Assembly (NCBI GenBank): GCA_965287045.1
Contig: OZ336874.1
Coordinates: 54,932,001 to 54,996,000, forward strand
Length of the DNA: 64,000 bases
Source: Carcharhinus amblyrhynchos
Lineage: Eukaryota
Reading direction: 5' to 3'
The notes under the pieces: model-generated
Databases searched by the model: none
What the model saw: the letters and a program-made list of their open reading frames with translations, nothing else
What the model was told of the DNA's origin: nothing
Shown here: in pieces, positions 3,070 to 64,000 of the stretch
How the letters are laid out: the number at the start of each line of letters is the position of its first letter
Numbering within the stretch: position 1 is the stretch's first letter
Made by a program: the position numbers and the translations under genes

Positions 3070-4050
3070 GAAAACCAGTCGTGATGACCACGCTGAGAGT
3101 GGGGGAGACAGGGAAGTATAGTACCTGGGGGTGGGGGAGGCCCATGTCTGTGCAGCATCCTGGCAGGGGCAACCTAATTCTGCCAGGATGCCAGTTCCAG
3201 GGTGTCAGTGCTAGGGATGGACCCTTTGGGGTCCAGAGTGGGGCATGCCACAATGCTTTTCAGGGAGAGAGTGTGCCCCCATTGCCTGTTAGGGGGAGAG
3301 AATGCCCCAGTGCTAAGGCGGGGTGGGGGGGGGGGGGGTGGTGGCGGCAGTGTCCCAATGCCTGTGTAGTGTGGTGGGAAGTTGCCCTGATGCCTGTATT
3401 GTGGGGGTGGGGGAGTGTGCACTGATGCCTGCCTATGTTGTGGGGTGGGGGAGCAGAGTGCACTGATGTCTCTGTTCTGGGGATGGGGTGGGGAGGGATG
3501 GAGTGTGCCGATACCTGTGTTGTAGGGGCATCACCCCAATGCTTGTGGCAGAGTACCTCCATGCCCTTGAGAGGAGTTTATTCTTCTCGCAGATCAGGGC
3601 ACCTTTTAAAGATGGCACCCTGGTGTGCATGGAGCCAGCCTTACCAGCTCTATCAGACACTGCTTGAGTGACAGCACGAACCACACCCCCCAGATTCTCT
3701 GCACATTGAGTGCCAGAGAAGCTGCAGTAGAAACTTGGCTGTGCAGCTGGAGAGACATGCACTGGTTTGTAGTGTGAAACTGACTGACAAATTTTAAGAC
3801 AATTCCATTCCTGTGTCCATTTCAAAACACAGGCTCAAGTCTCCCTTCAGAATCCCTTTCCTGACCTTAATCCGACAAAAAAAACACACCTTTCTCTGAA
3901 TTTGCTGGGGTTGGGGGGAGCAATCTTCCAGTGGAGAATCCTTCCAAACTGATTCAGTGCAGGAAACCTCAGAGGCATCGGTGAAGGGAATCCACTGAGA
4001 CGCCAGACCCTGTTCTTACAGCACGAGCTGCCTTATTTTGTTAAATAAGA
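3070..4050. repeat. G-rich, internally repetitive interspersed element, probably a non-autonomous DNA transposon
   Basis: Repeated gtgcc/tgatgcc + G-run units. Similar composition to 13238-13715 and 63540-64000. The ORFs here are low-complexity artefacts. Confidence 0.4.
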
Positions 4051-4332
4051 GGTTTAAGTGTCCCAACTTCTAGCCATAGCTTTTCAAGGAAGCTTTAGTT
4101 GTGTAGGGAGCCAGGTAGGTAAAGTAAGTGGTTAAGTGGGTAGGCTGGGTAAGTGGGTTAGAGTGGCAGTTGGTTATAGTGGTGAGATCAGGTAATGTCA
4201 GTCTGGAGGCGTTGGGTGGTTTTGGTGGAGTAGGAGTCGGTAGTGGGGTAGTAATTGGGTGGGACTGTCTGGGAATAAAGTCATGGGGGCTAGTCAGGTC
4301 AGGAAGCTCTGGTTCATAATTGTAAAACATTG

Positions 4333-5160
4333 TGTTGTGCCTGCCACATTGTCTGTTTTAACCCTTATACGATGGACAAAGCATTGCGAGTAGACTTCTT
4401 GTTAGTACAACCAATATTTATTTAAAACACAGAGTCAATAATCACCCACCCAACCAACAATAACTTATTGTTAATATCTTACAGAAAATACTAAAGTTCA
4501 AGTCCAATACTAGATCTTGACAACTTTGCATGACCGGCAAATACCCAAGCAGATATTGGCCTTTATCGTACACTGGTCTCTGTGGCCCTCTGTGTAGTCT
4601 GGCCCTTTGGCCTAATCTGGCACTCTGGCTCTAGTCTTCCTTCCTTCTCGGATGTGGTAGCTCTCCTCGTGCTGGTCGTTGCTGGCCACGTTCACCATTG
4701 TTGTAGCTCATTCATGGGGTCAGAGAGAGGGAGCTGCTTCTGTGGTGCAGCACTTTTTATCCCTTCTTGCTTTTGTGTCCTTTTGGGTGGTCTCCTGATT
4801 CTTGTCAATCAATCAATCGATCAGGGCTTGATCACCCTGATCGATAAGAATCCAATCAGGTGCTAACACACCAATCTCTGGGTGTGTCCCAAACAGCCAT
4901 CCCTGTAGGTGCTGGAAGCACGTAGGTCACAGGCCTCCCTCCCAAATAAGAGGTTAAAGTTCTCCTTTGTCTGGTAAACAACCCAGTTTGACCAGAGAGT
5001 CCCCTTTGTCCTGGAGATGGCCCATATCTTGTGTATTCAGTCATCTGAGCTGCGGCCTGTTCATCTCTGTCTTTTAGGCTGCAGCCTGCTGTTTTAATTC
5101 TTGCCCAGTTGTCCCAGGTTGCTTTATAAATTGCCATTTTGGGTGGCCCATTTGGCCATA
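4333..5160 (-). repeat. 3' LTR
   Basis: Colinear with 8796-9612 (10 mismatches in a 120-bp segment I aligned). Minus-strand AATAAA at 4417-4422. Confidence 0.93.
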
Positions 5161-5176
5161 GTCCCTCCTTTGATCC
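5161..5176 (-). promoter_or_regulatory. Polypurine tract (PPT)
   Basis: The minus strand reads ggatcaaaggagggac immediately before the 3' LTR start. Confidence 0.8.
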
Positions 5177-5699
5177 TGAATGCAAAGTGTGATGGATCAC
5201 AAACTTAGGACTAATATCTGTCAGGAATTCCCCAGTCACTCAACAGTCAAGCAAGGCGCAGGCATTGGCATGCAAAGCAATAATACATCCCTCTAACATA
5301 TTTACATTCCAGAAGTTACAGACAGCAAACATCCTGCTGTTAACCATGAATTACAAATAACTACACACTCTGAAGCAAAATCATTACAATAAGTCAATTA
5401 TAAACAACCAAACATTCAAAAAACATTACAATCATGAGTCCAATACACGTTCCGATATTAAGATTTTCAACTGTCCATTATTGTCCAGTAGTGCAAAGTG
5501 CAATCTCTGTAAAATTGTGCAAATAAATTAGAGGGGATCGTGATTCGAAGGTGAACCCCATGTTTAATGTTGTGTCAAACCACAAATAGCCGGGATATGA
5601 AAGGTTCATCGTGCTTATTCTGATCATGAGTCTGATAAGGTTGCATCTTTTGTCATCATCTGCCATTGTCCAGAGGAGATCAATGTAATTTCTGCTGTT

Positions 5700-6336
5700 A
5701 TCACATCTAATATTTGATGTATTTACTCTTTGTGCACCCCCCCTTTTTTTCCTGAAGCTGTATTGTATTTAGATAATCCACTGGTAAAAGATCTGACTCC
5801 CAAGTGGCAACATTCTGTTCAAAGGTCAACGTCAACTGGTGAAAGTATAACAAATGACATTTGATTTTTAAAAATCAGTATACAGCTTTCAAGAAATGAG
5901 TTTTAAAACAAAAGACCATCAGTTTGCTTTCAAAGAGTCTTGCAATAAGTTACAGGAAAAGGCTGTTGCATAGGGAGATCTCTCATTACCTTTCAGTGGC
6001 AAGGAAAATGACTCAGAAGTAACTAGGTACATTGCTGGCTATATTCAACTTGCGGTCTCAATCCCTTGACACATGTTCCATGCAATTTTCCAAGTAAAGA
6101 CATTTAAGTTCATTAAAAGCCACACTTTTTAAATGAAGTGCTCAATCCTCATAACGAGTTAACTGAGTCAATAATGGATAGCAAGATTAATCATGGTGAA
6201 AATGGTTCTCTAGCATTTTAACATAACAGGCAAATCAAATTTCATCAGATACAGCTGTCTGTGGTTCCAGGAGCCATTTTGGGAACAAGATGGGAGCTTG
6301 ATCCTGAATCTGGCAGAAATGCTTCTTTTGCTTTGA
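5700..6336 (-). other. Probable 3' UTR of the captured CIRBP-like mRNA
   Basis: Non-repetitive AT-rich sequence continuing from the CIRBP-like stop. Possible AGTAAA signal near 5722-5727 and no poly(A) tract. The distal boundary is uncertain. Confidence 0.55.
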
Positions 6337-6796
6337 TCAGTCAGTATAACTACCACCACCACTGTAGTAGTATCCATCTTAGCCCTTGTTCCCAGCTGAA
6401 TAGTTATCCCAGTCCCCCCTATTGTACCGGCTTCCACTGTTATTGCCACCTTTCCTGTCACTATCCCCAGTAGCCACCTCCTGCTCCTCTCCCGCGGCCA
6501 CTGTTACTGTAGCCATCTTGATCATACCAGCGGCCATCTCCAGACCTTTTCTTGGCATGACCCACCCAGATCTGGTGCCCATCAGATGATTTCCTGTTCA
6601 TTGCTTGCAATGCATCCCTGGTGTCCCCTGGGTTTTCAGAAGAGATGAAGCTGAAACAGCAGGATGCCATGGTGTCCTTGTCTTTAATCACTTTCACCTC
6701 AGAGATTTGCCTGTACTTGGAGAAAACCTCTTCCAGAGACTGCTTGTCTGCGTTGAAGGTCAGGCCGCTGACAAACAACTTCCCTGCTTCAGTCAT
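6337..6796 (-). pseudogene. CIRBP: Processed copy of cold-inducible RNA-binding protein (CIRBP/RBM3 family): RRM + Gly/Arg/Tyr-rich tail
   Basis: MTEAGKLFVSGLTFNADKQSLEEVFSKYRQISEVKVIKDKDT...AMNRKSSDGHQIWVGHA closely parallels the CIRBP RRM (EGKLFVGGLSF...SLEQVFSKYGQISEV...AMNGKSVDGRQIRVDQA). Intronless; RNP1 decayed; frameshift near 6463 and an internal stop near 6380. Confidence 0.9.
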
Positions 6797-6839
6797 GATG
6801 ACGGGATTGCTGTGCACTTGAGAGTGTGAAGCTCTAGGA

Positions 6840-8508
6840 GCTGGTGGAGCTGATGGCCCTGGTGGTCTTGGGAACCGTGGTGGGGGTCTCCTACAATCTC
6901 GGGCGAAGTGTCCAGGCTGCCGCAGTTAAAACACATCCCTCTATCTCTCCCCGGGGCTGCTGTGTAAGGTGGAACTGTATCTCTCTGGTGTTGGGGATCT
7001 CCTCTACCTTAGTTTCTCCATACTGTACCCTGGCCCGCCCTCATCAGAAGCATTCTCGTCTCCCTATCTGACCGTGATATTGGGGCTCCCTTATCTTCCT
7101 GTTCCCAGACATGAGCTAACCGTCGGAAAACCCATGCTTCATTGTGTGCGGTCTCTGCGGGGTGAAAATTAGCACAGGCTTTCTTGCCTTCCTCTGTGGT
7201 GTGTGAGACTAATGTCCTAGCCCATTTGGACGGATCAGCTTCATCTAATTTAGCCCGATCTAATTCCCCATACACTCCCGCGAAGTGGATCCATAAACAA
7301 CCGGCAAAGGCAGTTGGATGTTCTCCTTTCCTCTGTCTACATTTATTTAACCCATCGACAGGATCCCATTTATAAAATCCTACCGTGGTCAATATTGCTT
7401 CCTTGATCTCTTTCAAGGTTCCTTCCCCGAAATTTTGACAGGCTGGCAGGGCACACCGTACAGACTTGCTTAAGCACATGACTATCAGCTTCATTTCTTT
7501 TCTTTCATCTAGCCCATGCACTATCTTCTGCTGCCCAATATCCTCAAAGAAACTGTGGGTCAGACGATGACTCAAAGGTTGTGATTTTATTTGCGATTTT
7601 GGCCAATTGTGCCACCGTAAACGGGATCGTGTATGTAACAGCTGGGCCCTGAGACTCTCCTACCTGACATTCAGCCATCACTGGGTGCATCGGTACTGGA
7701 GGTGAATCAGGGGCACGGTGGGCATGACTTCCTCTGGGAAAGATGGTGGTGGACCCCAATCATCGATTCACATAATGTAAAGTTTAGCATTCTCCTTTAA
7801 CTCTGCCCAATCTGCATCCTCTATCTCCTCTTCTCTACTGTCCCGAAGGTACACATAAATCCATTTTGAACTGATAATCGGGATTCCAGCTGTGAAATTA
7901 CTCGCTGGCATTTGGAGTGGTCAGCGGTTGCCTGTCTCTGTTCTTTACCGGTTTGATGTAGCGCCTTTATAGCAGCCTGCAGATCAGTGCACTTAGTTTC
8001 CAATCGTGCTACCGCCCACTTGGCTTCACCTTTGGTCAAGACTGTGTGCAGGGCATTTTGGTAGGCTTTCTCATACTGGGTTTGAAAATTGCCCAGATGT
8101 AGTAAATTTGCCTGGCTGGTTCTCTAATTCCTCCACCTCTCTGTCCTTTTTGGCTCATATTTGGTCTATCCTCTCCTGATGCTGTTCCCTTAGTTTCTTA
8201 ATCTCCTTCTTCTTTTCCTCCTATGCCTGCTTCTACTCCTCCAGTCCCTTACGAACTATGTTTAATTCCTTTTCTGTTCCTAGCAGCTGTCCTAAGCAGC
8301 TCATAATGACAGTCACTTTCTCACATTTGCCCGCCTGTTTTCCCTGAACTTTCCTCACACCGCCCCAATACTTCTGCCCCAGGGATCCCGGTCCCACCTC
8401 AGCATTGGCACAAGATCCTGCCCATAACGGCCATCCTTTCTTCTCAATATATTCTCTGAATTTTGTTTCTCTTATGGGACACTTTGTCTCTGTGCTGTTT
8501 CCTGCCAT
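6840..8508 (-). pseudogene. gag: Degraded gag: N-terminal coiled coil, capsid with MHR-like motif, CCHC zinc knuckle
   Basis: Consecutive minus-strand ORF fragments 8233-8508, 7821-8039, 7544-7759 and 7009-7575 (CRQRKGEHPTAFA). CFNCG/QPGHFARDC at ~6893-6933 with a 1-nt deletion. Confidence 0.85.
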
Positions 8509-8775
8509 TCTGTCTTCAACAACAAGGGATTTGATTGGACTACGGATACAGCTTTGGCTATGTTTTAGTCCTAATCTCTCTGGATTCTAATGTAAACCTG
8601 CGGAGTTTACCCTATCCTCCTTGTTAGTAACAATGCACGCACAATAAATAATTTCCCGAAAGCAGTTATTTGTCCAATAAGGAGTTTTCATGTGTTGGCT
8701 CTGAGTTTTAAATAATCATTCAATGTAGGTTCTGTGGGATTCGATATCGGAGCAACAAAGTTACTTCTTGTCGAT

Positions 8776-8793
8776 GTCGCACCAGAGTAGCCA
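8776..8793 (-). promoter_or_regulatory. Primer-binding site, tRNA-Arg(TCT)-like
   Basis: Minus-strand tggctactctggtgcgac 2 nt after the LTR end. The plus strand gtcgcaccagagtagcca resembles the vertebrate tRNA-Arg-TCT 3' end (...tcccaccagagtcgcca), recalled from memory. Confidence 0.7.
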
Positions 8794-8795
8794 AT

Positions 8796-9612
8796 TGTTG
8801 TGCTTGCCACATAGTTTGTTTTAACATTTATATGATGGACAGAGAATTGCGAGTAGACTTCTTGTTAGCATAACCAATATTTATTTAAAACACACAATCA
8901 ATAATCATCCATCCAACCAACAATAAATTTTCTTACAGAAAATACTAAAGTTCAAGTCCAATTCTAGACCTTAACTTAACTTTGTGTGACACAAGTACCC
9001 AGGCAGATTTTGGCCTTTCTCTGTGTGCTGGTCTCTGTAGTCCTCTGTATAGTCTGGTCTTTTGGTCTGGTCTGGCACTCTGTCTTCCTTCCTTCTCCGG
9101 TATGGTGGCTGTCCTCATGTTGGTCGTTGCTGGCGATGGTCATTGTTATTGTAGCTCGATCGTGGAGTCAGAGAGAGAGAGAGAGCTGCTTCTGTTGTGC
9201 AGCACCTTTTATCCCTCCTTGGTTTTCTGCCCTTTTGGGTGGTCTCCTAATTCTTGTCAATCAATCAATCGATCAGGGCTTGATCACCCTGATGGATAAG
9301 AGTTCAATCAGGCGCTAACACACCAGTCTCTGGGTGTGTCCCCAACAGCCATGCCTGTAGGTGTTGGAGGCAGGTAGGTCACGGACCTCCCTCCCAAATA
9401 AGGGGTTAAAGTTCTCCTTTGTCTGGTAAACAACCCAGTTTGACCAGAGAGTTCCCTTTGTCCTGGAGATGGCCCATATCCCGTGTATTCAGTTATCTAG
9501 GTTGCATCCTGTTTATCTCTGTCTTTTAAGCTGCAGCCTGCAGTTTTAGTTCTTGTCCAATTGTCCCAGAGTGCTTTACAAATCACCAGTTTAGGTGGCC
9601 CATTTGGCCACA
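8796..9612 (-). repeat. 5' LTR
   Basis: TG...CA termini (tgttgtgc...ggccaca); direct repeat of 4333-5160. Confidence 0.93.
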
Positions 9613-9620
9613 ATTATAAT

Positions 9621-9751
9621 NNNNNNNNNNNNNNNNNNNNNNNNNNNNNNNNNNNNNNNNNNNNNNNNNNNNNNNNNNNNNNNNNNNNNNNNNNNNNNNN
9701 NNNNNNNNNNNNNNNNNNNNNNNNNNNNNNNNNNNNNNNNNNNNNNNNNNN
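9621..9751. other. Assembly gap (131 N)
   Basis: Run of N. Confidence 1.
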
Positions 9752-9854
9752 TATTGGGGGGAGTTTTCCTGTCCCACCTGTTCTGGGGATCATAGCAGGC
9801 AGGAGGTGAACTATTTAAAGATCCATTGACCTCAGGTGGGATTTTCTTGTTTTG

Positions 9855-10610
9855 GGTGTGTATGTGTGTGAAGCTGCCTGTCTGTTTGTGTGGGTGTGTG
9901 AGAGTGTGGGTGTGTGTATGTGTGGGTGTGTGTATATGTGAGAGTGGGAGTGTGTGTCTGTATGTGCGGTTATGTGTGTCAGAGTGTGGGTGTTTATATG
10001 TATGCGAGTGTATCAGTATGTGTGGGTATGTATAAATTTGAGAGTGCCTGTGTGTATGTGTGGATGTAGAAAAATTGTAGAAAACCATAGAAAATTACAG
10101 CTCAGAAACAGGCCTTTTGGCCCTTCTTGTCTGTGCCGAACCATTTTTTGCCTAGTCCCATTGACCTGCACTTGGACCATATCCCTCCACACCCCTCTCA
10201 TCCATGAACCCGTACAAGTTTTTCTTAAATGTTAAAAGTGACTCCACATTTACCACTTTATCCGGCAGCTCATTCCAAACTCCCACCACTCTCCGTGTGA
10301 AGAAGCCCCCCCTAATATTCCCTTTAAACTTTTCTCCTTTCACCCTTAACCCATGCCCTCTGACACACCCATGTGTGTTTATATGAGAGTGTGTGTCTGT
10401 ATGTTTGGGTGTGTGAGAGTGCATGAGTGCATATGTGTGAGGTTGTGCACGTGCATGCAGGTGTGCGTATGTATGAGAGTGTCTCTGTGTGGGTGTGCGA
10501 GACTGTGTGTGTGAAGGTGTGCGTATGCATGTGGGTGTGCGTACACGTTAGAGTGTGTCAATATGTGTGAGTGTGTACATGTGAGAGTGTGTCTGTATGT
10601 TTGGGTATGC
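9855..10610. repeat. Degenerate (TG)n microsatellite, split by a CR1 fragment
   Basis: gtgtgtatgtgtg-type tracts at 9855-10070 and 10370-10610. Confidence 0.9.
10070..10362 (-). mobile_element. CR1-clade LINE 3' end
   Basis: RGHGLRVKGEKFKGNIRGGFFTRRVVGVWNELP is the typical CR1 ORF2 C-terminus, followed by the 3' UTR and a short tandem tail. Confidence 0.88.
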
Positions 10611-18720: not shown

Positions 18721-19287
18721 CAACATGTAACACCTACACATAGTGAAAACATCCAAGGTGTTTCAAAAGAGAATAATCAAACAGAATTTGGCACAGAAGA
18801 GACACATGAAGAGACTGTCAACCAAAAGGGTAGAACTGACAGAACATTTTAAAGGAGGATGGAGAAGTAGAGTGATTTATTGAATGAATTCCAGGATTCA
18901 GGGCCTAAATAGCTGAAACACAGCCACCAATAATGAAGGAAAGACAATTGAGAATGCACAAGAGGCCAGAATTAGAGGTGCTTAATTGGAGTGCAAATCA
19001 ATTAAGCAGACAAAAGGATTGCAGAATTTTGAATGGACATGGATTATGTGTGAGTGTTAAATGCACTCAAATTTCCTTGATCTTTTACAGCTGATTGTCT
19101 CTCCGCCAGGACAAACGCACCTCTGCCATAGAACTGGTCACACACACACAACATTTAAACACAAATACCCTGCAGTTGCATGTGTTTCATCGTGTGCGGC
19201 GGGTATCTTAATCTTGTGACCAGATTTTCAGGCACACAGGCATCTATACTTAACAAAGTTAGTGGTAGCATTGGTTACTTTATCAGA

Positions 19288-19882
19288 TAATGAAGCAATA
19301 TAGGGCATTGGTGAGGCCGCAGCTGGAGTACTGTGTGCAGTTTTGGGCGCCGTACTTGCGCAAGGATATTTTGGCCTTGGAGGGAGTGCAGAGGAGGTTT
19401 ACTAGGATGATGCTGGAGTTGAGGGGGTTGAGCTACGAGGAGAGGCTGAATAAACTAGGCTTGGACTCGTTAGAGTTTAGAAGAATGAGGGGAGGTCTCA
19501 TTGAGACGTATAAGATGATGAATGGGATGGATAGGATAGAGGTGGAGAGACTCTTCCTGCTCAGAAAGGATAGTAGGACTAGGGGGCACAGCCTCAAGAT
19601 AAAGGGGGGGCAGTTTAGAACGGAGTTGAGGAGAAACTTCTTCACTCAAAGGGTGGTGAATCTCTGGAATTCTCCACCCGTTGAAGTGGTGGAGGCTACC
19701 TCGCTAAATATTTTTAAGACGTGGGTTGATGGGTTTTTGATAAGAGAGGGGATTAAGGGTTATGGGGAGATGGCGGGAATGTGGAACTGAGCCACGACAG
19801 ATCAGCCATGATCTTATTGAATGGCGGGGCAGCCTCGAAGGGCTAGTTGGCCTACTCCTGCTCCTATTTCTTATGTTCTTAT
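19288..19882 (+). mobile_element. CR1 LINE 3' end, well preserved (open 166-aa ORF2 C-terminus)
   Basis: YRALVRPQLEYCVQFWAPYLRKDILALEGVQRRFTRM...RTRGHSLKIKGGQFRTELRRNFFTQRVVNLWN, followed by the 3' UTR and a cttatgtt tail. Confidence 0.93.
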
Positions 19883-19919
19883 ATGGTGAATGATAGCTGT
19901 CTAGAGTATTTTATTGTAG

Positions 19920-20243
19920 TCATAGAATACATAGAATCTCTATAGTGCGGAAGGACGCCGTTTGGTCCATCAAGTCTACACTGGCCACAATCCCACCCAG
20001 ACCCTATTCCCATAACCCCATATATTTACGCTGCTAATCCTCTGACACTAGGGTCAATTTAGCATGGCCATTTAACCTAACCCACACATCTTTGGAGTGT
20101 GGGATGAAACCGGAACATCCGATGGAAACCACACTGGCACAGTAGGAATGCGCAAACTCGACACAGACAGTGACCCAAGGCTGGAATTGAACCCGGATCC
20201 CTGGCACTGTGAGGCATCAATGCTAACCACTGTGCCACCATGT
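19920..20243 (-). mobile_element. HE1-type V-SINE
   Basis: tRNA-like head (ggcacagtggttagca...ggttcaattcc), V-domain and CR1-type tail. Confidence 0.88.
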
Positions 20244-20399
20244 CTGTATTGTACATGTTTTATTACCAGAACAGGATTCTGATGATCAGATAAATTATGA
20301 GAACAAGTTCAAAGTTGTTTCTAAGATCTTCACATCACCAATAATTTGTTACAGAGTGTAATATACTTTCCTTATCTGAGTTCTGCCATAATTCAGGTT

Positions 20400-20840
20400 T
20401 ATGTAACTTAATAGGTCCCACTCCTGAGGTTGAACACACAATCCAGGCTGACAACTGTAGTGAGATCTCCCAACTGTGGCCTTTTACTCAAGTGATGTCT
20501 TCCAACTCCATTATCCTGAACAGGTGATAGGATATGTATGCTGCATGAGACACTCTTCCATTCTACATAACTGAACAGCTGATTAGGATAAACAGCAACA
20601 TCAATCATGATCTTTGCAGGAAGCAACAAGGTCCCCACCATGGTCATGGCATCCTGTCAACATACTGTGATCTCCCATGGAAATACCAGTAGACTGATTC
20701 CAGTGGAGTCTTGTTATGTGTCTGACAGTTGGCAGAGACCTGTTTGAGTGTACATATGTAAATCTAACTAATTCAGTGAGATAAATCAGAACTGTGTTCA
20801 TTCGGGTATCCCTTCGTACAGGGTTCCGTGTTATCACAAA
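20400..20840 (-). mobile_element. Possible highly degraded Gypsy integrase remnant
   Basis: HWNQ...GDLVASCKDHD loosely resembles the integrase HHCC zinc-finger region. Confidence 0.3.
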
Positions 20841-21733
20841 AAGGGTAAAGTGGACCCATTCTCCTTGGTTTGCCCTTCTAGCAGAGATTAATGGATAATG
20901 AACAGAAGTGGGAACTCTGGCTGGTTTTCACAGCCCCCCTCCCCCTCCCTCAGTAATGCTGTAGTGCACCTAGATGCTGTAGCATCCCCCACGATGAAGG
21001 CTTTGCTGCAACTGCCTCAGTACTCAACGCTGACAACTGCCAATCACCAGATGCAATTCTACAACTCATCCACTTCATCCTAGACCACAACGTCTTCACC
21101 TTCAACAACCAGTTCTTCATCCAGACACATGGAACAGCCAGGAGGACCAAATTTGCACCTCAATACGCCAACACCTTCATGCACAAGTTTGAACAAGACC
21201 TCTTCACTGCACAGGACATTCAATTAACGGTATACACTAGATACATCAATGACATTTTCTTCCTTTGGACTCACGGTGAACAATCACTGAAACAACTATA
21301 TGATGACATCGACAAGTTCCATTCCACCATCAGAATCACCATGGATTACCCTGTGGAATCAGTTGCATTCTTGGACACGTGCATTTCCATCAAGGACGAT
21401 CACCTCAGCACTTCACTGTACTGCAAGTCCACAGATAATCTCACGATGCTCCACTTCTCCAACTTCCACCCTAAACACATTAAAGAAACCATCCCCTATG
21501 GACAAGCCCTCCGTAAAGATAGGATCTGCTCAGATGAGGAGGATCACAACAGATACCTACAGACGCTGAAAGACGCCCTCATAAGAACAGGATATGGCGT
21601 TTGACTCACCCATCAACAATTTCAAGGTGTCAGAGTGAAAAACTGCACTGACCTCCTCAGAAGGCGAACAGTAGTCGTCCAGTAGTTCCCAGGAATGGAG
21701 AAGCCAAAACATCTTCTCCGGAGTCTTCAATAT

Positions 21734-22914
21734 AGAGTCATAGTCATAGAGTCATAGATGTTTACAGCTTGGAAATCAGGCCCTTCGGCCCAACTTGTCC
21801 ATGCAGACATTTTTTTAAAAATTCCTAAGCTGATCCCAATTGCCTGCATTTGGCCCATATCCCTCTATACCCATCGTACCCATATGACTAAATGCTTTTT
21901 AAAAGATAAAATTGTACCCGCTTCTACTACTACTTCTGGCAGCTTGTTCAAGACACTCGCCACCCTCTGTGTGAAAAAGTTGCCCCTCTGGACACTTTTG
22001 TATCTCTCCCCTCTCCTCTTAAACCTATGTCCTCTGGTGTTAGACTCCCCTATCTTTGGGAAAAGATATTGACTATCTACCTTGTCTATGCCCCTCATTA
22101 TTATATAGACGTTTATAAGGTTACCCCTCAGCCTCTGATGCTGCAGAGGGAAAATTCCCAGTCTATTCAGCCTCTCCTTATAACTCAATCCATCAAGTCG
22201 CAGTAGCTTCCTAGTAAATCTTTTCTGGACTCTTTCTAGTTTAATAATATACTTTCTATAGCAGTGACGAGAATTGCAAACAATATTCCAAGTGTGGCCT
22301 TACCATTGTCTTGTACAACTTCAACAAGATGTCCCAACTCCTGTATTCAATGTTCTGACCAATGAAACCATGCATGCCAAATGCCTTCTTCACCACTCTG
22401 TCCACCTGTGACTCCACTTTCAAGGAGCTATGAACATGTACCCCTAGACCCCTCAATTCTGTAACTCTCCCCTACGCTTTACCATTAACTGAGTAAGTCC
22501 TGCCCTGGTTCAATCCAGCAAAATACATCACCTTGCATTTGTCTAAATTAAACTCCATCTGCCATTCGTCAGCCCACTGGCCCAATTGATCAAGATCCTG
22601 TTGCAATTGGAGATAACTTTCTTCACTGTCCATTATGCCACCAATCTTGGTGTCATCTGCAAACTTACTAACCATGCCTCCTATATTCTCATCCAAATCA
22701 TTAATATAAATGTCTAATAACAGTGGGCTCAGCACTGATACCTGAGGCACACCGTTGGTCACAGGCCTCCAGTTTGAAAAACAACTCTGTACAACCACCC
22801 TCTGGCTTCTGTCAAGAAGCCAATTTTGTATCCAATTAAATACCTTATCCTGGATCCCGTGAGATTTAACTTTATGCAACACCTACCATGCGGTACCTTG
22901 TCAAAGGTCGTGCT
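21734..22914 (-). mobile_element. CR1 LINE 3' portion inserted into the Penelope element
   Basis: NGVPQVSVLSPLL...SKFADDTKIGG RT motifs, a (gagtcata)n tail, and aatat on both sides. Confidence 0.92.
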
Positions 22915-33390: not shown

Positions 33391-36300
33391 AGATACTATA
33401 CGATGCTTGGATAAGATACTGTAAGGTTCACTCTGCACTACAAATGGGGTCACCTGCCCTGAGGTCAAAAAGTCAGACAGCACATGTTCAGAAATGAGCC
33501 AGAGTAGCAGATTCAGTGATGTGACACCTACAGTTAAATCTGTTGCTTTGAGTGTTGTTCTTCAAGCCTGAGATGTGACATGAGTGAGGAAGGTAATGAT
33601 GGGAGATGTTACAAACGAATGGTCTAGTTGGACCAATGCATGGCACTGGCTTGGAGGGCCAGAGGGCCTGTTTCCTGTGCTGTACTGTTCTTTCCTCTTT
33701 GTTCTTTGTTCTTGTTTAGGATTCTGTCAAGACATTTGCTGGAGCTGATTTGTCTGCACTCTGGGGAACTGAGCCATTTGATCTGATGGGTGATGCCAGG
33801 ACCATCTGTGAGAATGGAAAGCATGACAGGAACGGTTTGAGGTGTATGCAGCCAGTCATGATCTGTCTTTGGACAGGGTGACACTGGCACAGGAAGCACA
33901 GCGACAGGCCTTGTTGTTGTTCAGTGCTTCAGTGAGGGAGACTTTCAAGAGATTTCCTGACCCAGGAGAAAAGATGGATTTTGAGTGAAAGTTTGAAGGA
34001 TTGTAATGTGGCCACACCAAATGCCACATTCTAAAGGTATATTTTCCATCAAATGAGACAGAAAGAGGGAGAAACAGTCACCCAATTTGTGACCTGGTTG
34101 AGGCAGGCATCAGATGGAAGCAATTATGATGCGACTGATCTGAATAACCAGATAATGGATCAGGTGGTCCAACATTGCGATTCGGATAGGTTGAGGTGTG
34201 AGCTGCTGGGAAAAGAGGTGATTTAATGTTGGATGACACTTTGAAAATAGCAGCAGCATTTGAAACAGTGAATAGACAATTTCACAGCACGAAACTTGGT
34301 TCCACATCTGCCACTGATACAACATACGCTGAGGTTAACGGAGTGGCATAACGGACCCCAGGTGTGTGTAAATGTTAACAGCAAATGTCTGAGAGACTGT
34401 TTCAGATGAAGCAACTTGGGGAACTATAAAAGAGATGCCCTGCCAAAAGAAGGATATGCAGACAATGTGGCAAAGGCCATTTTGCCAAGAAGTGCAGAAA
34501 CAAAGTTGAACAGAGTAGGAAGCCTGGCAAAACACATCAAGGAAAAAGAGATGAAAATAGTACAATTGTGAGATGAGTTGCAGAAGGTGCCAAAAGTGAG
34601 GACATACATAGTAATCATGGGAACAAATCTTTTGTCAATGGGACCAACTAGGAGAAAATTCCATTAGTTGTTGGTGATATTGAAGTGAGCATCATTGTAG
34701 ATTCAGGCAGTGACAGTAATAACATCGACAGAACACTCCGGGAGGAACTGAATACAAAGAGAATCAAGTTCATATCTCAAAAATGTGTCAAAAAACTCTA
34801 TTCTTACACCTCCAAAACCCACTTCAAACTATTGGATGTTTTATTGTGGATATGAGAATGTGAATGAAAATGCAGAGACAGAATTTGCAGAGACTAAAGA
34901 GGATGGTGAGCCTCTTCTGGGTAGAGAAACTTCCCCAGTGTTGGAGCTGCTACACATCAGATTGAAAATGAATTGTGTGAAATGCTGTGTGAGGCTTAGT
35001 GAAGAGTTTAGACCAGTGCTTCAAGGAATTGAGAAGTTTCACAACTGTCAAGTGAGATTAATCATGGATGAGAATGTGGTGCCTGTAGTTCAGGCGGTAA
35101 CAGACACCTTTTGGTCTGAGAGGGAAATTGAGACAAAGGTAAAGGAACTGATTGAGCAGGATATCATTGAGCCAGTTCCAGGACCAACATTGTTGGTGAG
35201 GCCAGTTTTGGTCATGTCAGAACCAATTGATGACATCAGACTCCATGTTGATATGTGACAGGGAGAATGAAATGGTAATGAGACAATGTCATCCAATCCT
35301 AACTGTAGACAAAATCTTTTAAGAGTTACTAACAAGCAAGTATTTTCCAAATTAGACTTAAAATGGGGAGACCATAGATGGAGTGCAACAAATATTCACT
35401 GGGCTGATTTCTAGAATGGCAGGATTGTCACATGAGGAGAGATTGGGAAACAGCAGGAGCGTGTCTGCATTGACTGAAATATTTCAAAGCACAGACTACC
35501 AGTCACTCTGTATTCAGATAATCGGCCACAGTTCACTTCACAGACCTTTACAGGCAAGTCACAGGAATTCACCAATACACAGTGATCTGTAAATGACCTT
35601 GAGTAAATAGGGAAGTGACGACAAAGCCAACCCTTAATGAAACAGGTGAAGATTACTCAGGCTAAGGGCAAAGATTGGAAGGCAGCATTGTTATCTGATG
35701 TGACCATGTACGGGGCAGCTCCACTCACCATGACAGGAAAGAGAGCAGCTGAGCTGCTACTTAGACGCAAAATACTCACCGTGATGACAGTGCTGGGAGA
35801 TATCAGTGTTAATCAGGAGGTTCGAGGTCATGACGATGAGAAAAAGGACCGTTTTACACAGATCGCAAAAGGGGAGCCAGACAATTTGATCAGATGCCAG
35901 GTGATGAAGTACTGTTGGGACAGAAGAGTCCAAGTAAGATGGACAGGCTATTTCACTCCCAAGTTGTACATTGTCACCCCAATAAGGGAATGAGTGTGAC
36001 TGTGCAATCCCCAGAGGGTATATTGTATGACAGAAATTCTTGTCAAAAAGTTTCATGGTGGTAAAGGTACAGCAGTAGATGAAGCAGATGTAGGGAGTAA
36101 ATTGACATCTATAAATCCAGAACTCCAAGCCAGTGAGGCTGATGACAGGCAGACAGCTTGCTATCCAGTGGGAAAAATATCAGTTCCAGAGGGGACAATG
36201 ATATTTTGTAATCCTGACGTGATGACAAGAGTTCCCAAGACTGCAGGCAAATCATAGTGTGAGAGAAGACCCCAAAGCAATAAGAAGATTTTGTGTGGAT

Positions 36301-38482: not shown

Positions 38483-38576
38483 AACTTGGCACATTTCTTG
38501 TTTTACACACCACCAGAATTACAGATTGTCCAACTCACAGACTGGTGTTTTAGATGTTGCTTGATTTACATGCTGC

Positions 38577-39600
38577 TCGATCGATACACTGGCTGATTGA
38601 TATGCCACCTGATCGATACACCATCCCATTGATACACTGTCGAACATAGAATCATAGAATCATCCCTACAGTAGCGAAGGAGGCCATATGGCTCATCGAG
38701 CCTGTATAGACCACAATCCCACTCAGGCCCTATTCCTGTGACCCCACACATTTGCTCTGCTAATCTCCCTGACACTAGGGCCAATTTAGCTTGGCCAATC
38801 AACCTAACCCCCACATCTTTGGACTGTGGGAGGAAACGGACACTCAGAGGAAACCCACTCAGACACGGGGAGAATGTGCAAACTCCACACTGATAGTGAC
38901 CCAAGGCTGGAATTGAATCTGGATCTCTGGCGCTGAGAGGCAGTAGTGCTAAACACTGTGCCACCGTACTGTTGATACACATCCAATCAATGCACAGACT
39001 ATTGATACATTGTCCAATTGATATACCATCCGAACGATACATCATCCAACTGATATACTATTTGATCGACACACTTTCTGATCGATACACTATCCCATTG
39101 ATACACCATCCCAATGATGCACCGTCCCAATGTTACACTGTCTGATTGATACATCACCCCATTGATACACTATCCAATCGATACACGATCAAGCTGATAC
39201 ACCACATATTGTCCCATTGATACACTATCTGACTGATAAACCATCCAATCAGTACACTGTCCAATCATACAACATCCGATCAATGCACTGTCCAATTGGT
39301 AACTGGCCGATCAATATACCATGCCATTGATACACCATCCGATCGATAATCATCTAATTGATACGTCATTGGATATACCTTCCAACCGATACACCATCTC
39401 ATTGATAAACCGTCCAATTGAAATACTGTCCAATTGGCACGTCAGCTGATCAATACATCGTCCAATTGATACACTGTCTGATTGATATACTGACCCATTG
39501 ATACACCATCTGATCAATAAATCATCCAATTGATACACTATCCAATTAATACACCGTCCAGCTGATGCACCATCCAATCGATACACTGTCCATTCAATCC
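38577..39600. repeat. Degenerate 16-bp minisatellite (approx. CRATYGATACACYRTC), split by a SINE
   Basis: Units such as gatcgatacaccatcc, cattgatacactatcc and gattgatacatcaccc; roughly 40 copies. Confidence 0.9.
38645..38967 (-). mobile_element. HE1-type V-SINE
   Basis: Full head, V-domain and (catagaat)n tail. Confidence 0.9.
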
Positions 39601-39614
39601 ATCATCAGAGAACA

Positions 39615-40330
39615 TGTCCATTTTTGATCTGGTGATAGAGGAAATGTTGTTGAAGCAGAAAGTGGTTGAAGCTATGACATTGCCCTGTCCTGGACTGAGA
39701 TGATTGATCCCCATTGACCATAACCATCTTCCTTTGTGCTAGGTATGACTCCTGAAGAGTTTCACCTGTAATTCCCATTGACTTCAGTTTTGCTGTGGCT
39801 CATTGATGCCACATTTGGGCAAATGCTGGCTTGATGTCAAAGGCAGTCACTCTCACTTCACCTCTTGAGTTCACCTCTTCACCAAATGATGGCTGTAATG
39901 AGGTTAGTACCGACTAAGTGCTACATGACAGCGCTGTTAACAACACCTTCCATCACCTTGCTGATGATTGAGAGTTGACTGATTGGCTGGGTTGGATTGT
40001 CCTGCTTTTTGTGGGCAGGATATTCCCGGACAATTTTCCACATTGACGGGTAGATGCTAGTGTTCTGATTGCCAATGCTTGTAATGGAACAGCTTGGCTA
40101 GGGGCACAACTAGTTCTGGAACACAAGTCTACTGATGGAATAATGTAAGTGCCCATAGCCAGTGTCTGTAACCATTGCTTGATATGTGGAATGAACTGAA
40201 GACAGGGTATCTGTGATCCTGGAGAACTCAGGATGAGGCTGAGATGCATCATCCACCCAGCATTTCTGGCTGAAGATGTTTGCAACACTTAAGCCTTATA
40301 TTTTGCATTGATGTGTTTGACTGCTGCATG
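39615..40330 (-). mobile_element. Degraded CR1/L2-group LINE RT-region fragment
   Basis: The minus strand encodes VRVTALDIKPAFAQMWHQ-like (RT domain 3: LD+..AFD.V.H) sequence near 39805-39855. Confidence 0.65.
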
Positions 40331-48627: not shown

Positions 48628-50597
48628 TCTGATTGGCTGGAAGCTCTTGCAAACAAGACATTCTCCTGCAAACACTTGACAATTAAATGCCTGAGACAAG
48701 TAAAATTGTGTCAAGGCTTCATGGGTCAATGGAGCTGGGATTGCCCCCGAATTTTCAGCAAGGGTGGACCCAGCTTCAAATTCAGCCACAAACAACGTGC
48801 GGTATTGAGACACTCAGATGGACAATCAAATTTGCGAGTTTGATGCAGCTGAGGCCTGAGGACGAATTTCTGGTGAGCTCCAGGTGCCTGTCCCATACCT
48901 GCTGCCCATTTTGTACTGATTTCTGGTGCTACACATATTTCTCTCCCCTGCATGTTTAAAATAAGAACAGTAACAAGTACTGGGGCCAGATAAGAGAAGG
49001 AAAAATATTCTAAACCTGGTGAACAGATGGAAAAATGTGCATCGTCTATACTTAACAACAGATGAAAACTGAACTTCTCTCCAAAGGAATTGTTGACGTT
49101 TTGCCAGAATCTGATTTCGGTCAGGTATTCTTTTCATGGTAATTAAGGGAGATTACATGTGTGTGCACAGTGTTACCAGCCACAGTAAATTGAAAGTCAT
49201 ATTCTTTGTAATCAATCCTTTAAAGCAGCAGGCTTTAACACATTACCCGTTTCAAAGAGTGTTTGTTTACTGAGCTCCTTCAGTTAGTGTAAAACCAGAT
49301 GGAACGGATTATGTGACTTTCTTATTCTGTTGAATTGATGCAGAAACATAAAAGGATCCAAGTGCATTTTAATGGACAATCTCCCTCTCCTGAAATACCT
49401 AGAAATAACGGATAAATCAATATTTGCATGTAAGATGCAGCAGGAGACTTCCTGAAACAGTGTTAAACAAGTGTCAGTTTAAACAGAGAGCCGGGAGACA
49501 AGCTACATCTCTGGAGGGAACGAATTGTAGTTACTGTGCGTTCCAGTCTGGCTACTGGAATCTGAAGACGTTCATAGGCCCTAGTACATGTAGACTTCAT
49601 ATACAAACATTGGTTTGAACTCAGCACGTGCTGAAAAAATGAGTTAGCCTGTTTTTTCATTCCTGCAATTTAAATGTAGTTCAAACTTATCGACCAGTGG
49701 ATTCTAATGCAGAGTACTGAAAATGTGTGGTCCTTGTAGAGGCCAGTACAAACAGGTTTCCAAAAAAAACTTTTACTTGATTATTTTCATGGGACCATGA
49801 ATATTCCCACCATTGCCAGTCTTCATAGAGTCCCACCCATAAAGGATAAGAACCCACAGTAACCCATTTTCTTTCAGTACAGTTTACTGTGTAACAGTAA
49901 AAGGACAGTCAGATAACCTGTGAACATGTTTAAACAGCCAATGTTTCTGAAAGTGAGACTGATAAGCAAGAGCTAGTCAATACTTTCTTTGAGTATTCAC
50001 TTTGGAAGATGGAAATGGTATACACTCCCTAACCAATAAAACTAAATGAATAGAATAAAGTCAGTCTGGCTAAGAGAGTTCAAAATATTTAGACACCCAA
50101 GATGGATGGCATCTATCTCAGAGTTCTAATAGGAGGGAAGATCTCTGCGCTAGTGTTGGGCTGAGGAATAGCACATGGAATGATACACTGGTAAAGCCAG
50201 AAATAGATGTGGTTCATTCTTGCCCAGCCACTATATCACGCTGTCAGCCTTCAACACCATTATTCCTATAAAACTCTGATTGGCTGGAAGCTCTTGCAAA
50301 CAAGGCATCCTCCTGCAAACCCCCGACAATTAAATGCCTGTGACAAGTAAAATTGTGTCAAGGCATCCTGGGTCAATGGAGCTGGGATTGCCCCCAAATT
50401 TTCAGCAAGGGTGGATCCAGCTTCAAATTCAGCCCTAAACGGCATGTGGTATCGAGACACTCAGATTGATGATCAAATTTGCGAGTTTGATGCAGATGAG
50501 GCCTGAAGACCAATTTCCAGTGAGCTCCAGGCGCATGTTCCATACCTGCTGCCCATTTTGCACTGATTTCTGGTGCTACACATATTTCTCTCCCCCA
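48628..50597 (+). repeat. ~320-bp direct duplication (48628-48948 and 50276-50597)
   Basis: ctgattggctggaagctcttgcaaacaag...ctggtgctacacatatttctctcccc is present twice and colinear. Confidence 0.92.
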
Positions 50598-61420: not shown

Positions 61421-61607
61421 GCAAATAAGAACCACAGAGATTTGGATGACCTCAAGTTGAAGAAAAGTTGGATCAAGTAGGCCAGCCAAAATATGTTGGA
61501 AAGCCAGGTCGAGATTTTGATTTGATTTATTATTGTCACATGTATTAACAGTAAGAAGTCTCACAATACCAGGTTAAAATCCAGCAAGTTTATTTGGTAG
61601 CAAAAGC

Positions 61608-61650
61608 CACAAGCTTTCGGAACGCTTGCTGCTCCTTCATCAGGTGAGTG
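61608..61650 (-). ncRNA. Minimal hammerhead ribozyme motif
   Basis: Minus strand: CAC CTGATGA A GGAGC AGCAAGC GTTCC GAAA GC TT GTG. Confidence 0.72.
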
Positions 61651-61996
61651 GGAGATGTTTTCACAAACAGGGCATGTAAGGACACAAACTCAATTTACAA
61701 ATTAATGGTTGGAATGCGAGTCTTTACAGGTAACCAAGTCTTAAAGGTACAGACAATATGAATGAAGAGAAGGTTAACCACAGGTTAAAGAGATGTGTAT
61801 TGTCTCCAGCCAGGACAGTTAGTGAGATTTTGCAAGTCCAGGCAAGTCATGGGGCTTAGAGATAGTGTGACATGAACCCAAGATCTCGGTTGAGGCAGCT
61901 CTGTTTGTAGATTATCTGTAAAGACTCGCATTCCAACCATTATTTTGTAAATTGAGTTTGTGTCTTTAAATGCCCTGTTTGTGAACAGAACTCCCA

Positions 61997-62035
61997 GTCA
62001 TCTGATGAAGGAGCAGTGCTCTGAAAGCTTGTTGC
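61997..62035 (+). ncRNA. Minimal hammerhead ribozyme motif
   Basis: CAT CTGATGA A GGAGC AGT GCTCT GAAA GC TT GTT. Confidence 0.65.
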
Positions 62036-64000
62036 TTGTGCTACCAAATAAACCTGTTGGACTTTAACAGGATGTTGTGAGACTTTTTACTGTGCTTACC
62101 CCAGTCCAATGGCAGCATCTCCACAACATGTATAAACATACAGTGAAAAGTATTGTTTCTTGCGTGCTATACAGACAAAGCATACTATACATAGAGAAGG
62201 AAAGGAGAGAATGCAGAATGGAGTATTACAGTCATAGCTAGAGCATAGAGAAAGCTTAACTTAATATGAGTTAACTCCATCCACAAGTCTGATGGCAGCA
62301 GGGAAGAAGCTGTTCTTGAGTCAATTGATATGTGTCCTCAAACTTTTGTACCTTTTTTCTGATGGAAGAAGGCGGAAGAGAGAATGTTCGGGGTGAGTGG
62401 GGTCCTTAATTATGCTGGCTGTTTTGCCAAGGGAGTGGGAAGTGTAGACAGAGTCAATGGATGGGAGACTGGTTTGAGTGATGGACTGGGCTTCATTCAC
62501 AACCCTTTGTAGTTTATTATGGTCTTGAACAGAGTAGGAGCCAGACCAAGCTGATACAACTGGTGCATCTGTAGAAGTTGGTGAGAGTTGTGGCAGACAT
62601 GCCAAATTTCCTAAGTATCCTGAGAAAGTAGAGGCGTTGATGGGCTTTCTCAACTGTAGCATCCACACAGAGGGACCAGAACAGGTTGTTGGTGATCTGG
62701 ACATTTAATAACTTGAAGCTTTCAACCATTTTCCTTTGTTCCCCATTGATGTAGACAGGGGCACGTCCTCCACTATGCCTCCTGAAGTTGATGACTATCT
62801 CCTTCATTTTGTTGACACTGAGGGAAAGATTATTGTTGTCACACCAATTCACCAGATTCTCTATCACTTTCCTGCGCTCCACTTCATCATTATTTGAGAA
62901 CTGACCCACAGCGAAGGTGTCATCAGCAAACTTGAAAATCGAGTTCAAGAGAAATTTGACCATACAGTCATAGATGTTTAAAGAGTATAGTAAGGGTCTG
63001 AGGACACAGCCTTGTGAGGCACCAGTGTTGGGGATGATCATGGGGGAAGTGTTGTCTCCTATCCTTACTGATTGTGGTCTGTAGGTTAGGAAGTCTAGGA
63101 TCCAGTTGCAGAGGGAGGAGCCACAACGTTTGGAGCTGAGTCTCATAGGAATAGTGATGTTAAAGGCTGAGCTGTAGTCTATGAATTGGAGTCTGACATT
63201 GATGTCTTTGTCATCTAGATGTTCCTGGGTTGAATGGAGGGTCAAGGAAATGGTGTCTGCTATGGACCTGTTGTGGCGATAAGTGAAGTGTAGTGGATCC
63301 AGGCAATCTGGGAGGCCGGAAAGAGGAATAAGGTTTCAGGATACACAAGAGATGCTCTGCAACAACATGTCCATAACTGCATAAAATGGTGTGACTCATT
63401 TTGACAGATATTTACAGCAGGTAGAACTTCTAAACACAAATACGAACAAAAACATCTTGAAAAACTCAGCAGATCAGACAGCATGCATGGTGAGAAACAG
63501 AGAGGCGATCCTTCTAAAAAATGACAAAATGTCAGGGTCTGACTGAAAACCTCTCTCCAGAGAAACACACTGGTTTTCTCTCCAGGCCTTCTGATACTTT
63601 GGCCCCAAAAAATCAACTGGGCTTGTTTCATGCCATCATGTTGAGAGGTGGGGCCTCAATAGGTCGACACAGCCTGGCTGCATTGAGATTGGGCTGCCAT
63701 GTTAAATAGTCACTCCGATCAGAGGAAAAAAATAACCTCTCCATCCCACCACAGAGGACTCAAAAGCTCCCCTCCGCCTCCCCCCATGATCAGAGCCAGT
63801 ACCTGAATCCCCCCGACCCAAACAGTTAATGTTAGCTCTCTACCCCTCTGCCCCCAGCAGACAATGTTGCCCCTCCCACCTCCCCCCCAAGGAGTTAATG
63901 CCACTCTCCTCCCCTCAAACAGTAAGAAGCACTGTTACTCCCCCCCAGTTTTCCCTCAAACATTGGACACCTTCCCCCCGATGCCCCCCCCACCAAACAA

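Follow-up and report, generated by a model that had tools for sequence, protein, structure and literature searches.

The window discussed here is the whole stretch of 64,000 nucleotides from the ground shark Carcharhinus amblyrhynchos (assembly GCA_965287045.1, contig OZ336874.1, positions 54,932,001 to 54,996,000). On its minus strand it holds a decayed element with two long terminal repeats (LTRs), in which an intronless copy of a host coding sequence of the CIRBP-B-like type lies directly behind gag. The parts are given below in their order along the minus strand; the primer site, the A7G7 tract and the polypurine tract were read directly from the sequence.

9612-4333, minus strand: whole element, consisting of LTR, primer site, gag, insert, polypurine tract and LTR
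8796..9612, minus strand: 5' LTR of 817 nucleotides, TG...CA, with a TATA-like GATAAAA at 9213 and AATAAA at 8885
8776..8793, minus strand: stretch resembling a primer-binding site, starting with TGG, 2 nucleotides past the LTR
6830..8508, minus strand: gag pseudogene with N-terminal region and coiled coil, capsid from about 7684, CCHC knuckle at 6933-6893 and Pro-rich tail (phmmer, tblastn)
6824..6835, minus strand: 5' junction zone, from the end of gag similarity to the start of the host leader, holding AGCTTCA at 6833-6827
6797..6823, minus strand: host 5' leader of about 27 nucleotides, stop-free and in frame, with a 9-codon match to the leader of the gene model P0008
6337..6796, minus strand: processed CIRBP-B-like copy (tandem paralogue, type A), with the RRM at about 6778-6569, a degenerate RNP1, an RGG tail, a frameshift near 6466 and a premature stop
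5753..6336, minus strand: presumed host 3' untranslated region (3'UTR), AT-rich, with no A skew, ending in AATACA (5769-5764) and AGCTTCA (5759-5753); its host origin is presumed
5737..5750, minus strand: A7 (5750-5744), then G7, a candidate poly(A) remnant and 3' junction
5172..5736, minus strand: internal sequence of about 0.57 kb, presumably element-derived, mildly A-rich, then T-rich
5162..5171 (5171-5162), minus strand: polypurine tract of 10 purines
4333..5160, minus strand: 3' LTR of 828 nucleotides, with AATAAA at 4422, opening with TA
4329..4332, no strand: 4-nucleotide flank ATTG, equal in 3 of 4 positions to ATTA at 9613-9616

Several attributes of an LTR retroelement are present: direct LTRs with TG...CA ends, a primer site, a polypurine tract and a Gag with capsid fold and CCHC knuckle. 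The LTRs are direct repeats ending in TG...CA, except for the TA that opens the 3' copy. They are identical at 711 of 810 aligned bases (87.8%; 74 transitions, 25 transversions), which corresponds to a Kimura two-parameter distance of 0.136. The flanks ATTG and ATTA are a probable, albeit weak, target-site duplication left by the integrase; the right one is readable for 8 nucleotides, and 9 nucleotides outside the 5' LTR a gap of 131 N begins. The interior of the element is free of gaps. The primer-site-like stretch at 8776..8793 may resemble the end of an arginine tRNA; a tRNA gene for comparison was not found within the window, nor was a further copy of the LTR or of the internal region, and Rfam gave 0 matches over 4000-10000. 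The initial annotation had described the order LTR, primer site, gag, CIRBP coding sequence, 3'UTR, residual sequence, polypurine tract and LTR. This order is borne out, on the minus strand, which had been left unstated. The copy is dead in both gag and RRM.

The identity of gag is secure. Its homologues align over 8454 to about 6830 (tblastn), and 5 frame changes and 5 stops lie inside the aligned blocks. A protein of Scyliorhinus torazame matches it with a phmmer E of 2e-55. Searching exhaustively with the longest frame of gag yielded 11 representative proteins; one of them, P0020, is a bacterial repeat protein that matched spuriously, and it was removed. Ten of the 11 were looked up, and 4 shark proteins, from Scyliorhinus torazame and Heterodontus francisci, were found among them. 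A word-indexed search of longer proteins with the capsid frame passed 0 of 759 candidates, and Pfam recognized no Gag family in the gag pieces of the window; the homologues contain zf-CCHC, with a single CCHC. P0019, P0022 and P0023 are remote relatives of Gag, with an identity of about 25%. They lie on longer contigs and may be parts of complete elements by which the family could be placed.

The capsid fold was judged on a model of the homologue P0013, not on the gag of the window, and its mean predicted local distance difference test (pLDDT) is a modest 55.9. The top 35 of its 50 structural matches are capsids of retroviral or retrotransposon type, domesticated forms included (best Z 8.4, root-mean-square deviation 4.1, 80 residues aligned). 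A model of full-length Gag (pLDDT 54) was set aside as poor, its structural matches being dominated by the coiled coil. Orthoretroviral capsids are characterized by an N-terminal proline and a β-hairpin; the proline motif is seen in the gag homologues, and the hairpin is predicted at pLDDT 40-48 only. In a viral library, the best structural matches of P0013 were the Gag of an endogenous retrovirus (ERV) of Rhinella marina (E 2.5e-05), walleye epidermal hyperplasia virus 2 (WEHV2, 6e-04) and walleye dermal sarcoma virus (WDSV, 1.6e-03). With these matches, the single CCHC and the probable 4-bp target-site duplication, the element resembles the epsilon-like (class I) ERVs of fish and amphibians. 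It differs from them in having neither reverse transcriptase nor env for placement, and against solved structures the capsids of PEG10, murine leukaemia virus (MLV), Copia and dArc tie (Z 7.6-8.4). The Atlas features of the gag homologues favour capsids of the Ty3/Gypsy type. Judged from these models, we lean towards an epsilon-like ERV. Epsilon-like ERVs and others resembling snakehead retrovirus (SnRV) are described for the elephant shark (CmiERV lineages II/III) in the accessible parts of PMC4422223 and PMC4977317.

The insert contains a clear RRM (Pfam RRM_1, E 2.7e-13); a single frame, 6925-6461, comprises half of the zinc knuckle and the full RRM. Its best match in the PDB is human CIRBP (E 6.5e-24), followed by RBM3 (1.7e-19), and shark proteins are closer still: identity with the Mustelus host protein is 71% over residues 1-111 (tblastn). 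Residues 1-156 of the 158 of P0007 are covered by 6796-6340 (tblastn) with no intron-sized gap, and colinearity with type-A shark CIRBP-B-like proteins extends up to their last residues. The CIRBP and RBM3 genes of vertebrates have introns in their coding regions, and the same is assumed for the shark parent. On this assumption the colinear, intronless coding sequence marks the insert as a processed copy, in agreement with the sense-oriented, intronless CIRBP copy first described. That description had the whole mRNA captured, which has to be amended to a near-whole one, as the space between gag and the ATG allows for no more than about 35-40 nucleotides of 5' leader.

Sharks possess tandem arrays of small RRM-RGG genes with two types of tail, and the copy in the window has the type-A tail. 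Judging from the sequence comparisons, its parent is one of the tandem CIRBP-B-like genes of a ground shark. A tree was built from 30 rows, made up of the window copy, 28 named rows of cartilaginous fish and one gar; matches without a name and the remaining bony-fish matches were not included. In it, the copy falls into a ground-shark clade (97/94) and pairs with the Mustelus protein XP_078065643 (P0001; 98/93). The copy sits on a long branch (0.29) and was flagged for atypical composition. In the sources these shark proteins are named both CIRBP-B-like and RBM3-like, and the tree had a single bony-fish row. An N-terminal MTE, considered as a derived mark of the family, turned out to be the state of the ground-shark host genes in the tree and was discarded.

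The family shows some further peculiarities. P0005 and P0008, from Mustelus and Chiloscyllium, are two-RRM models of 354 and 337 residues, apparently fused tandem CIRBP-B-like paralogues; one of them is misnamed as a chloroplast ribonucleoprotein. In Scyliorhinus, P0033, P0034, P0038, P0039, P0040, P0043 and P0046 represent CIRBP/RBM3-like genes scattered across contigs, mostly of type B and some of them diverged. In catsharks the CIRBP/RBM3-like family thus seems prone to dispersed copies, independently of the clade of this element. Because they are mostly of type B and do not group with the window copy, these genes were not counted as support.

At the join between gag and the host sequence, similarity to the closest Gag relative stops at about 6829, inside a Pro-rich stretch. 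The 9 codons before the host ATG, when compared with the type-A leader in the Chiloscyllium gene model P0008, reach a score of 17, and only 0.04% of 127,628 9-mers of the window score as high; two other upstream sequences gave −9 and −12. We therefore consider about 27 nucleotides of host leader to be retained, which places the join within about 12 nucleotides. No stop interrupts the 40 codons that lead from the knuckle (6916) to the ATG (6796), and they are in frame with gag. The host coding sequence thus stands in the gag frame as in gag-onc viruses, and an intact chimera could therefore encode a Gag-RRM-RGG fusion.

A second record contains the same join. P0014 is a frameshifted record of 168 residues, 78% identical to the window in gag; in the stretch between knuckle and ATG the two differ by a gap of 6 residues, which preserves the frame. 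Of its last 24 residues, 19 equal the shifted frame of the window, ending at a stop that overlaps the host ATG. The last 10 residues show 3 differences, each one transition off, and 2 of the 3 give the residue of the host leader. The junction between gag and leader therefore exists elsewhere and is not an artefact of assembly. P0014 may stem from a separate insertion or from the identical site in a different species. The leader, the in-frame ATG, P0014 and the Mustelus relative P0001 all go beyond the initial annotation.

The 3' part is less clear-cut. AATACA, the A7 tract and a shift to A-richness suggest that the mRNA ended near 5769-5744: the A7 is the sole run of at least 6 A on this strand of the element, and past it the AT skew changes from −0.05 to +0.13, later to −0.27. 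The 7-mer AGCTTCA occurs at 6833 and 5759, and a second shared 7-mer, GTGCACA, at 6817 and 5737. With AATACA at 5769, the A7 at 5750-5744 and the paired AGCTTCA, the former statement that the insert lacks both a poly(A) tract and a target-site duplication is not confirmed. Neither 7-mer fits cleanly as a target-site duplication directly after poly(A). The sharing of a 7-mer is expected by chance in 4% of window zones of 40 nucleotides, 11% of those of 100 nucleotides and 78% of those as large as the whole 3' part, and the zone was picked post hoc, after inspection. For none of 5 homologue tails does gag continue past the 3' junction (P 0.67-0.96), the tails being poorly conserved. The presumed 3'UTR also contains a perfect 16-nucleotide palindrome at 5862-5877.

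The absence of any pol remnant, also claimed initially, stands in so far as Pfam found no pol domain in 6 of 6 frames of 5172-6340 and only about 0.57 kb is unaccounted for; the scan itself is insensitive, as in a control it missed pol in 3 of 3 frames over the decayed Gypsy-like pol at 34650-35402. The absence of pol therefore rests on length, that is, on the residual 0.57 kb; that the insert took the place of pol, as first described, is presumed. A role of this residue as an env or protease remnant was considered and found no support: the open frame 5768-5478, which lies mostly within it and has 96 codons (96/124), falls short of significance when judged by resampling (P about 0.10), and neither Pfam nor the Atlas nor the PDB sequences, taken up to E 10, gave a match to it. 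Equally, nothing but its appearance supports A7G7 as a frameshift site leading to a protease.

Additional information on the history of the element comes from P0001. This Mustelus asterias protein (XP_078065643.1) is encoded by an intact RRM gene of 120 residues with a shortened RGG tail and few private changes. It is located on another chromosome-scale contig than the Mustelus host tandem genes (202 versus 149 Mb) and is a candidate for a functional retrogene. At 7 of the 87 RRM columns compared, the window copy and P0001 agree with each other against the Mustelus host gene. Six of these shared states are seen in no more than 1 of 10 type-A hosts, and the seventh reflects a change on the host side. 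A further 15 columns differ in the window only, 3 in P0001 only and 1 in all three. The 16 private changes of the window copy compare with a simulated mean of 12 (95% range 6-19) for neutral decay at the divergence per LTR. Since these private changes fit LTR-dated decay, the shared ones are most simply explained as older than this insertion, having arisen in an ancestral chimera that later moved. The asymmetry between 15 and 3 is significant (p 0.0075), somewhat biased by the ascertainment of P0001 as an intact open reading frame. For a copy decaying neutrally over the age of the LTRs, the private changes of P0001 are also too few (P 0.004-0.015); by this comparison P0001 is either younger or constrained. 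In gag, 11 window-only changes stand against 6 P0014-only ones in 98 columns, an asymmetry that is not significant (p 0.33). The initial annotation had predicted many CIRBP-like pseudogenes in this genome; among the 45 CIRBP-like proteins listed, 1 of those in the tree groups with the window copy, and the search covers predicted intact open reading frames.

How did the host sequence enter the element? We favour, with somewhat better than even confidence, capture at the RNA level: a shark ERV-like element would have acquired the spliced transcript of one of the tandem CIRBP-B-like genes. The chimera comprises two LTRs, a primer site, gag, a host leader, a host coding sequence and a polypurine tract, and leaves no space for pol. 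An abundant host mRNA would have been co-packaged with the viral RNA; at a point some 0.57 kb upstream of the polypurine tract, reverse transcriptase would have jumped from the viral RNA to the mRNA, landing on or close to the poly(A) end, and it would have switched back to viral RNA where gag ends, unless the latter join was made by splicing of a read-through transcript. The pol-less product could then have been copied with the aid of a helper. After diverging, it would have given rise to this insertion at the least and probably to further ones in ground sharks. With gag in frame with the host ATG, a Gag-RRM-RGG protein would have been encodable; the present copy is inactivated in both parts. 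Sense orientation, the position just beyond the zinc knuckle and the intact cis-acting ends all support capture, and on either side of the insert lie parts of a single LTR element, as in LTR-mediated retrocopies. LTR-mediated capture had already been proposed in the initial annotation and is still the best reading, yet the very signs then named as speaking against it, poly(A) and a target-site duplication, have weak candidates.

Several observations weigh against capture followed by movement. AGCTTCA at both junctions is a possible target-site duplication. An in-frame join has a prior chance of 1 in 3, and no intact Gag-RRM fusion protein is found among the 11 gag representatives. The retrocopies known from LTR elements are mostly partial (a median of 26% of the transcript in Drosophila) and without poly(A), according to the part of PMC5131818 accessible to us; the present one is near full. 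Finally, the 22 changes in total lie beyond the simulated range at 6.8% divergence, but within it at 10% (11-25). A divergence of 10% is plausible for a CpG-rich coding sequence, and orthology of P0001 and P0014 then fits. The competing mechanism is the insertion of a processed copy, made by a long interspersed nuclear element (LINE) through target-primed reverse transcription, at the gag end of an already pol-less provirus, with later copying as an option. A 3' end that is near full and a 5' end that is slightly short are what LINE retrocopies show (PMC5470649, as far as its accessible text goes). The A-rich stretch ahead of the second AGCTTCA, the second GTGCACA following the A7 run (6817/5737) and the LINE remnants within the window point the same way. 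The two candidate duplications are, however, mutually exclusive, as one leaves the A7 outside the insert and the other lies inside the host-leader match, and 7-mers are shared by chance in 4%, 11% or 78% of window zones, depending on their size, the zone having been chosen post hoc. Moreover, gag is not resumed after the 3' junction in any of the 5 tails, poorly conserved as they are, and the LINE would have had to insert its product in sense orientation right past the knuckle of an element already devoid of pol. We regard this route as less likely than capture, yet as its main rival.

Within capture at the RNA level, the join may also have been made by splicing. In the classical model of oncogene transduction, a provirus resides upstream of or inside a host gene, and its read-through transcript is spliced, here from the gag end to the first coding exon; a single template switch near poly(A) would then suffice. 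The similarity to the host leader begins at 6823, where P0008, as judged from its residues, appears to cross a splice acceptor; gag similarity ends only some 6-12 nucleotides away, and the A7 marks the presumed 3' junction. The gag end is, however, Pro-rich and poorly resolved, and P0008 upstream of 6823 is probably intron read-through, so that similarity would stop there under any model. As a part of the favoured capture scenario, we consider splicing rather unlikely. An assembly chimera or a chance juxtaposition is practically negligible: the gap of 131 N so close to the 5' LTR might arouse suspicion, but the independent record P0014 has the same junction and no gap lies inside the element. 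On the sequences compared, an assembly chimera at the 5' junction is largely refuted.

Whether the captured gene moved again is a separate question. The chimera is old and probably moved again, to judge from the junction it shares with P0014 and the derived residues it shares with P0001, and we consider its later amplification or mobility fairly likely. A single old insertion that never amplified is less likely, though well worth considering; P0001 and P0014 would then be orthologues, or P0001 would stem from an unrelated retrogene lineage that donated the mRNA. One relative of the junction (P0014) and one of the RRM (P0001) among the relatives found agree with this alternative, as does the insignificant asymmetry in gag (11 versus 6 of 98, p 0.33), and a single insertion may date back far enough to be present in several species. 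It is challenged by the asymmetry in the RRM (p 0.0075) and the few changes of P0001, which demand selection or a younger copy. Dating by the LTRs (0.136/2u) was tried and abandoned: it yields about 31 million years with a mammalian rate and about 309 million years with the shark rate assumed in PMC4422223 (accessible part). The latter exceeds the age usually assigned to ground sharks, and no insertion date is therefore claimed.

Most likely, the element adds to the known class of LTR-mediated retrocopies, of which the accessible part of PMC5131818 (Tan et al. 2016) lists human FAM8A1_r, mouse IAPEy retrocopies and Drosophila CG17604_r. As here, host mRNA lies between parts of an LTR element, with both LTRs kept; it takes the place of the internal open reading frames, as is presumed for the shark element, and such copies are often in sense and in frame, and they can be copied again as non-autonomous elements. 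They are defined by mapped microhomology, whereas the shark element is likened to them by its architecture and has a candidate A7 remnant. Maize Bs1, treated in the same part of that paper, is likewise an LTR element with captured host sequence, and its copies share switch points, as P0014 suggests for the shark element; it differs in being from a plant and in carrying three gene fragments and a functional hybrid protein, as opposed to one whole vertebrate coding sequence in a dead copy. In zebrafish ERVs, host genes are reported to lie between LTRs in place of viral genes; the accessible part of PMC8672886 does not show processed mRNA copies or gag fusions, and gag is kept here. Hallmarks of LINE and LTR retrocopies are covered in the accessible part of PMC5470649, according to which whole-gene capture is possible. 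PMC8922424, PMC13320880 and PMC10587355, each seen in part, served as background only. As the mechanism is already described (PMC5131818, accessible part), the architecture alone will hardly surprise a specialist. Sharks are not among the species examined there, as far as that part goes. In the titles and abstract openings listed, no CIRBP-bearing shark element is reported, which is weak evidence, supplements (for PMC5131818 those with the individual cases) being outside this scope.

What the element offers is a clean, testable case from cartilaginous fish: a near-complete mRNA, both LTRs, a junction that can be mapped and recurs in another record, and a Mustelus gene that is related and intact. 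Should sister copies with different flanks exist, a captured host gene would have travelled as cargo over long times. Acutely transforming retroviruses carry gag-onc fusions, such as gag-myc in MC29 and gag-fps in Fujinami virus. Like the shark element, they are defective and helper-dependent, have lost pol and hold the host coding sequence in the gag frame. They are, however, somatic isolates selected for transformation; here we deal with a germline fossil and a stress-related RNA-binding cargo. If the RRM was under selection while fused to Gag, the element would be a rare case in nature of a retrovirus maintaining a gag-host fusion in the germline. One may go further and envisage that a ground-shark retroviral lineage carried RRM-RGG fused to Gag as a working part, replicating long enough to fix about 6 RRM changes and seeding several copies, at least one of which (XP_078065643) would persist today as a retrogene under constraint. 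By binding RNA, the extra domain could then have helped genome packaging or translation under cold or stress. We consider this scenario quite improbable, although the in-frame fusion, the second record of the junction and the apparently constrained Mustelus relative speak for keeping it in view.

The rest of the window contains other repeats. At 33900-35900, plus strand, there is a decayed, unrelated Gypsy-like gag-pol with a zinc knuckle near 34433-34525 and a protease-like motif near 34700. The regions 19269-22882 and 62517-63335 hold fragments that are presumably reverse transcriptases of the LINE or Penelope type, labels that we assigned by eye from translated open reading frames. A direct repeat of 300 nucleotides (48628-48927 and 50275-50574; 90% identical, 1647 nucleotides apart) is possibly a small duplication or a repeat-flanked element. 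At 38545-39620, a degenerate tandem array with a period of 16 nucleotides is broken by an insert resembling a short interspersed nuclear element. Nested inverted repeats at 1831-2718 and 61548-62093 suggest head-to-head structures or structures like miniature inverted-repeat transposable elements.

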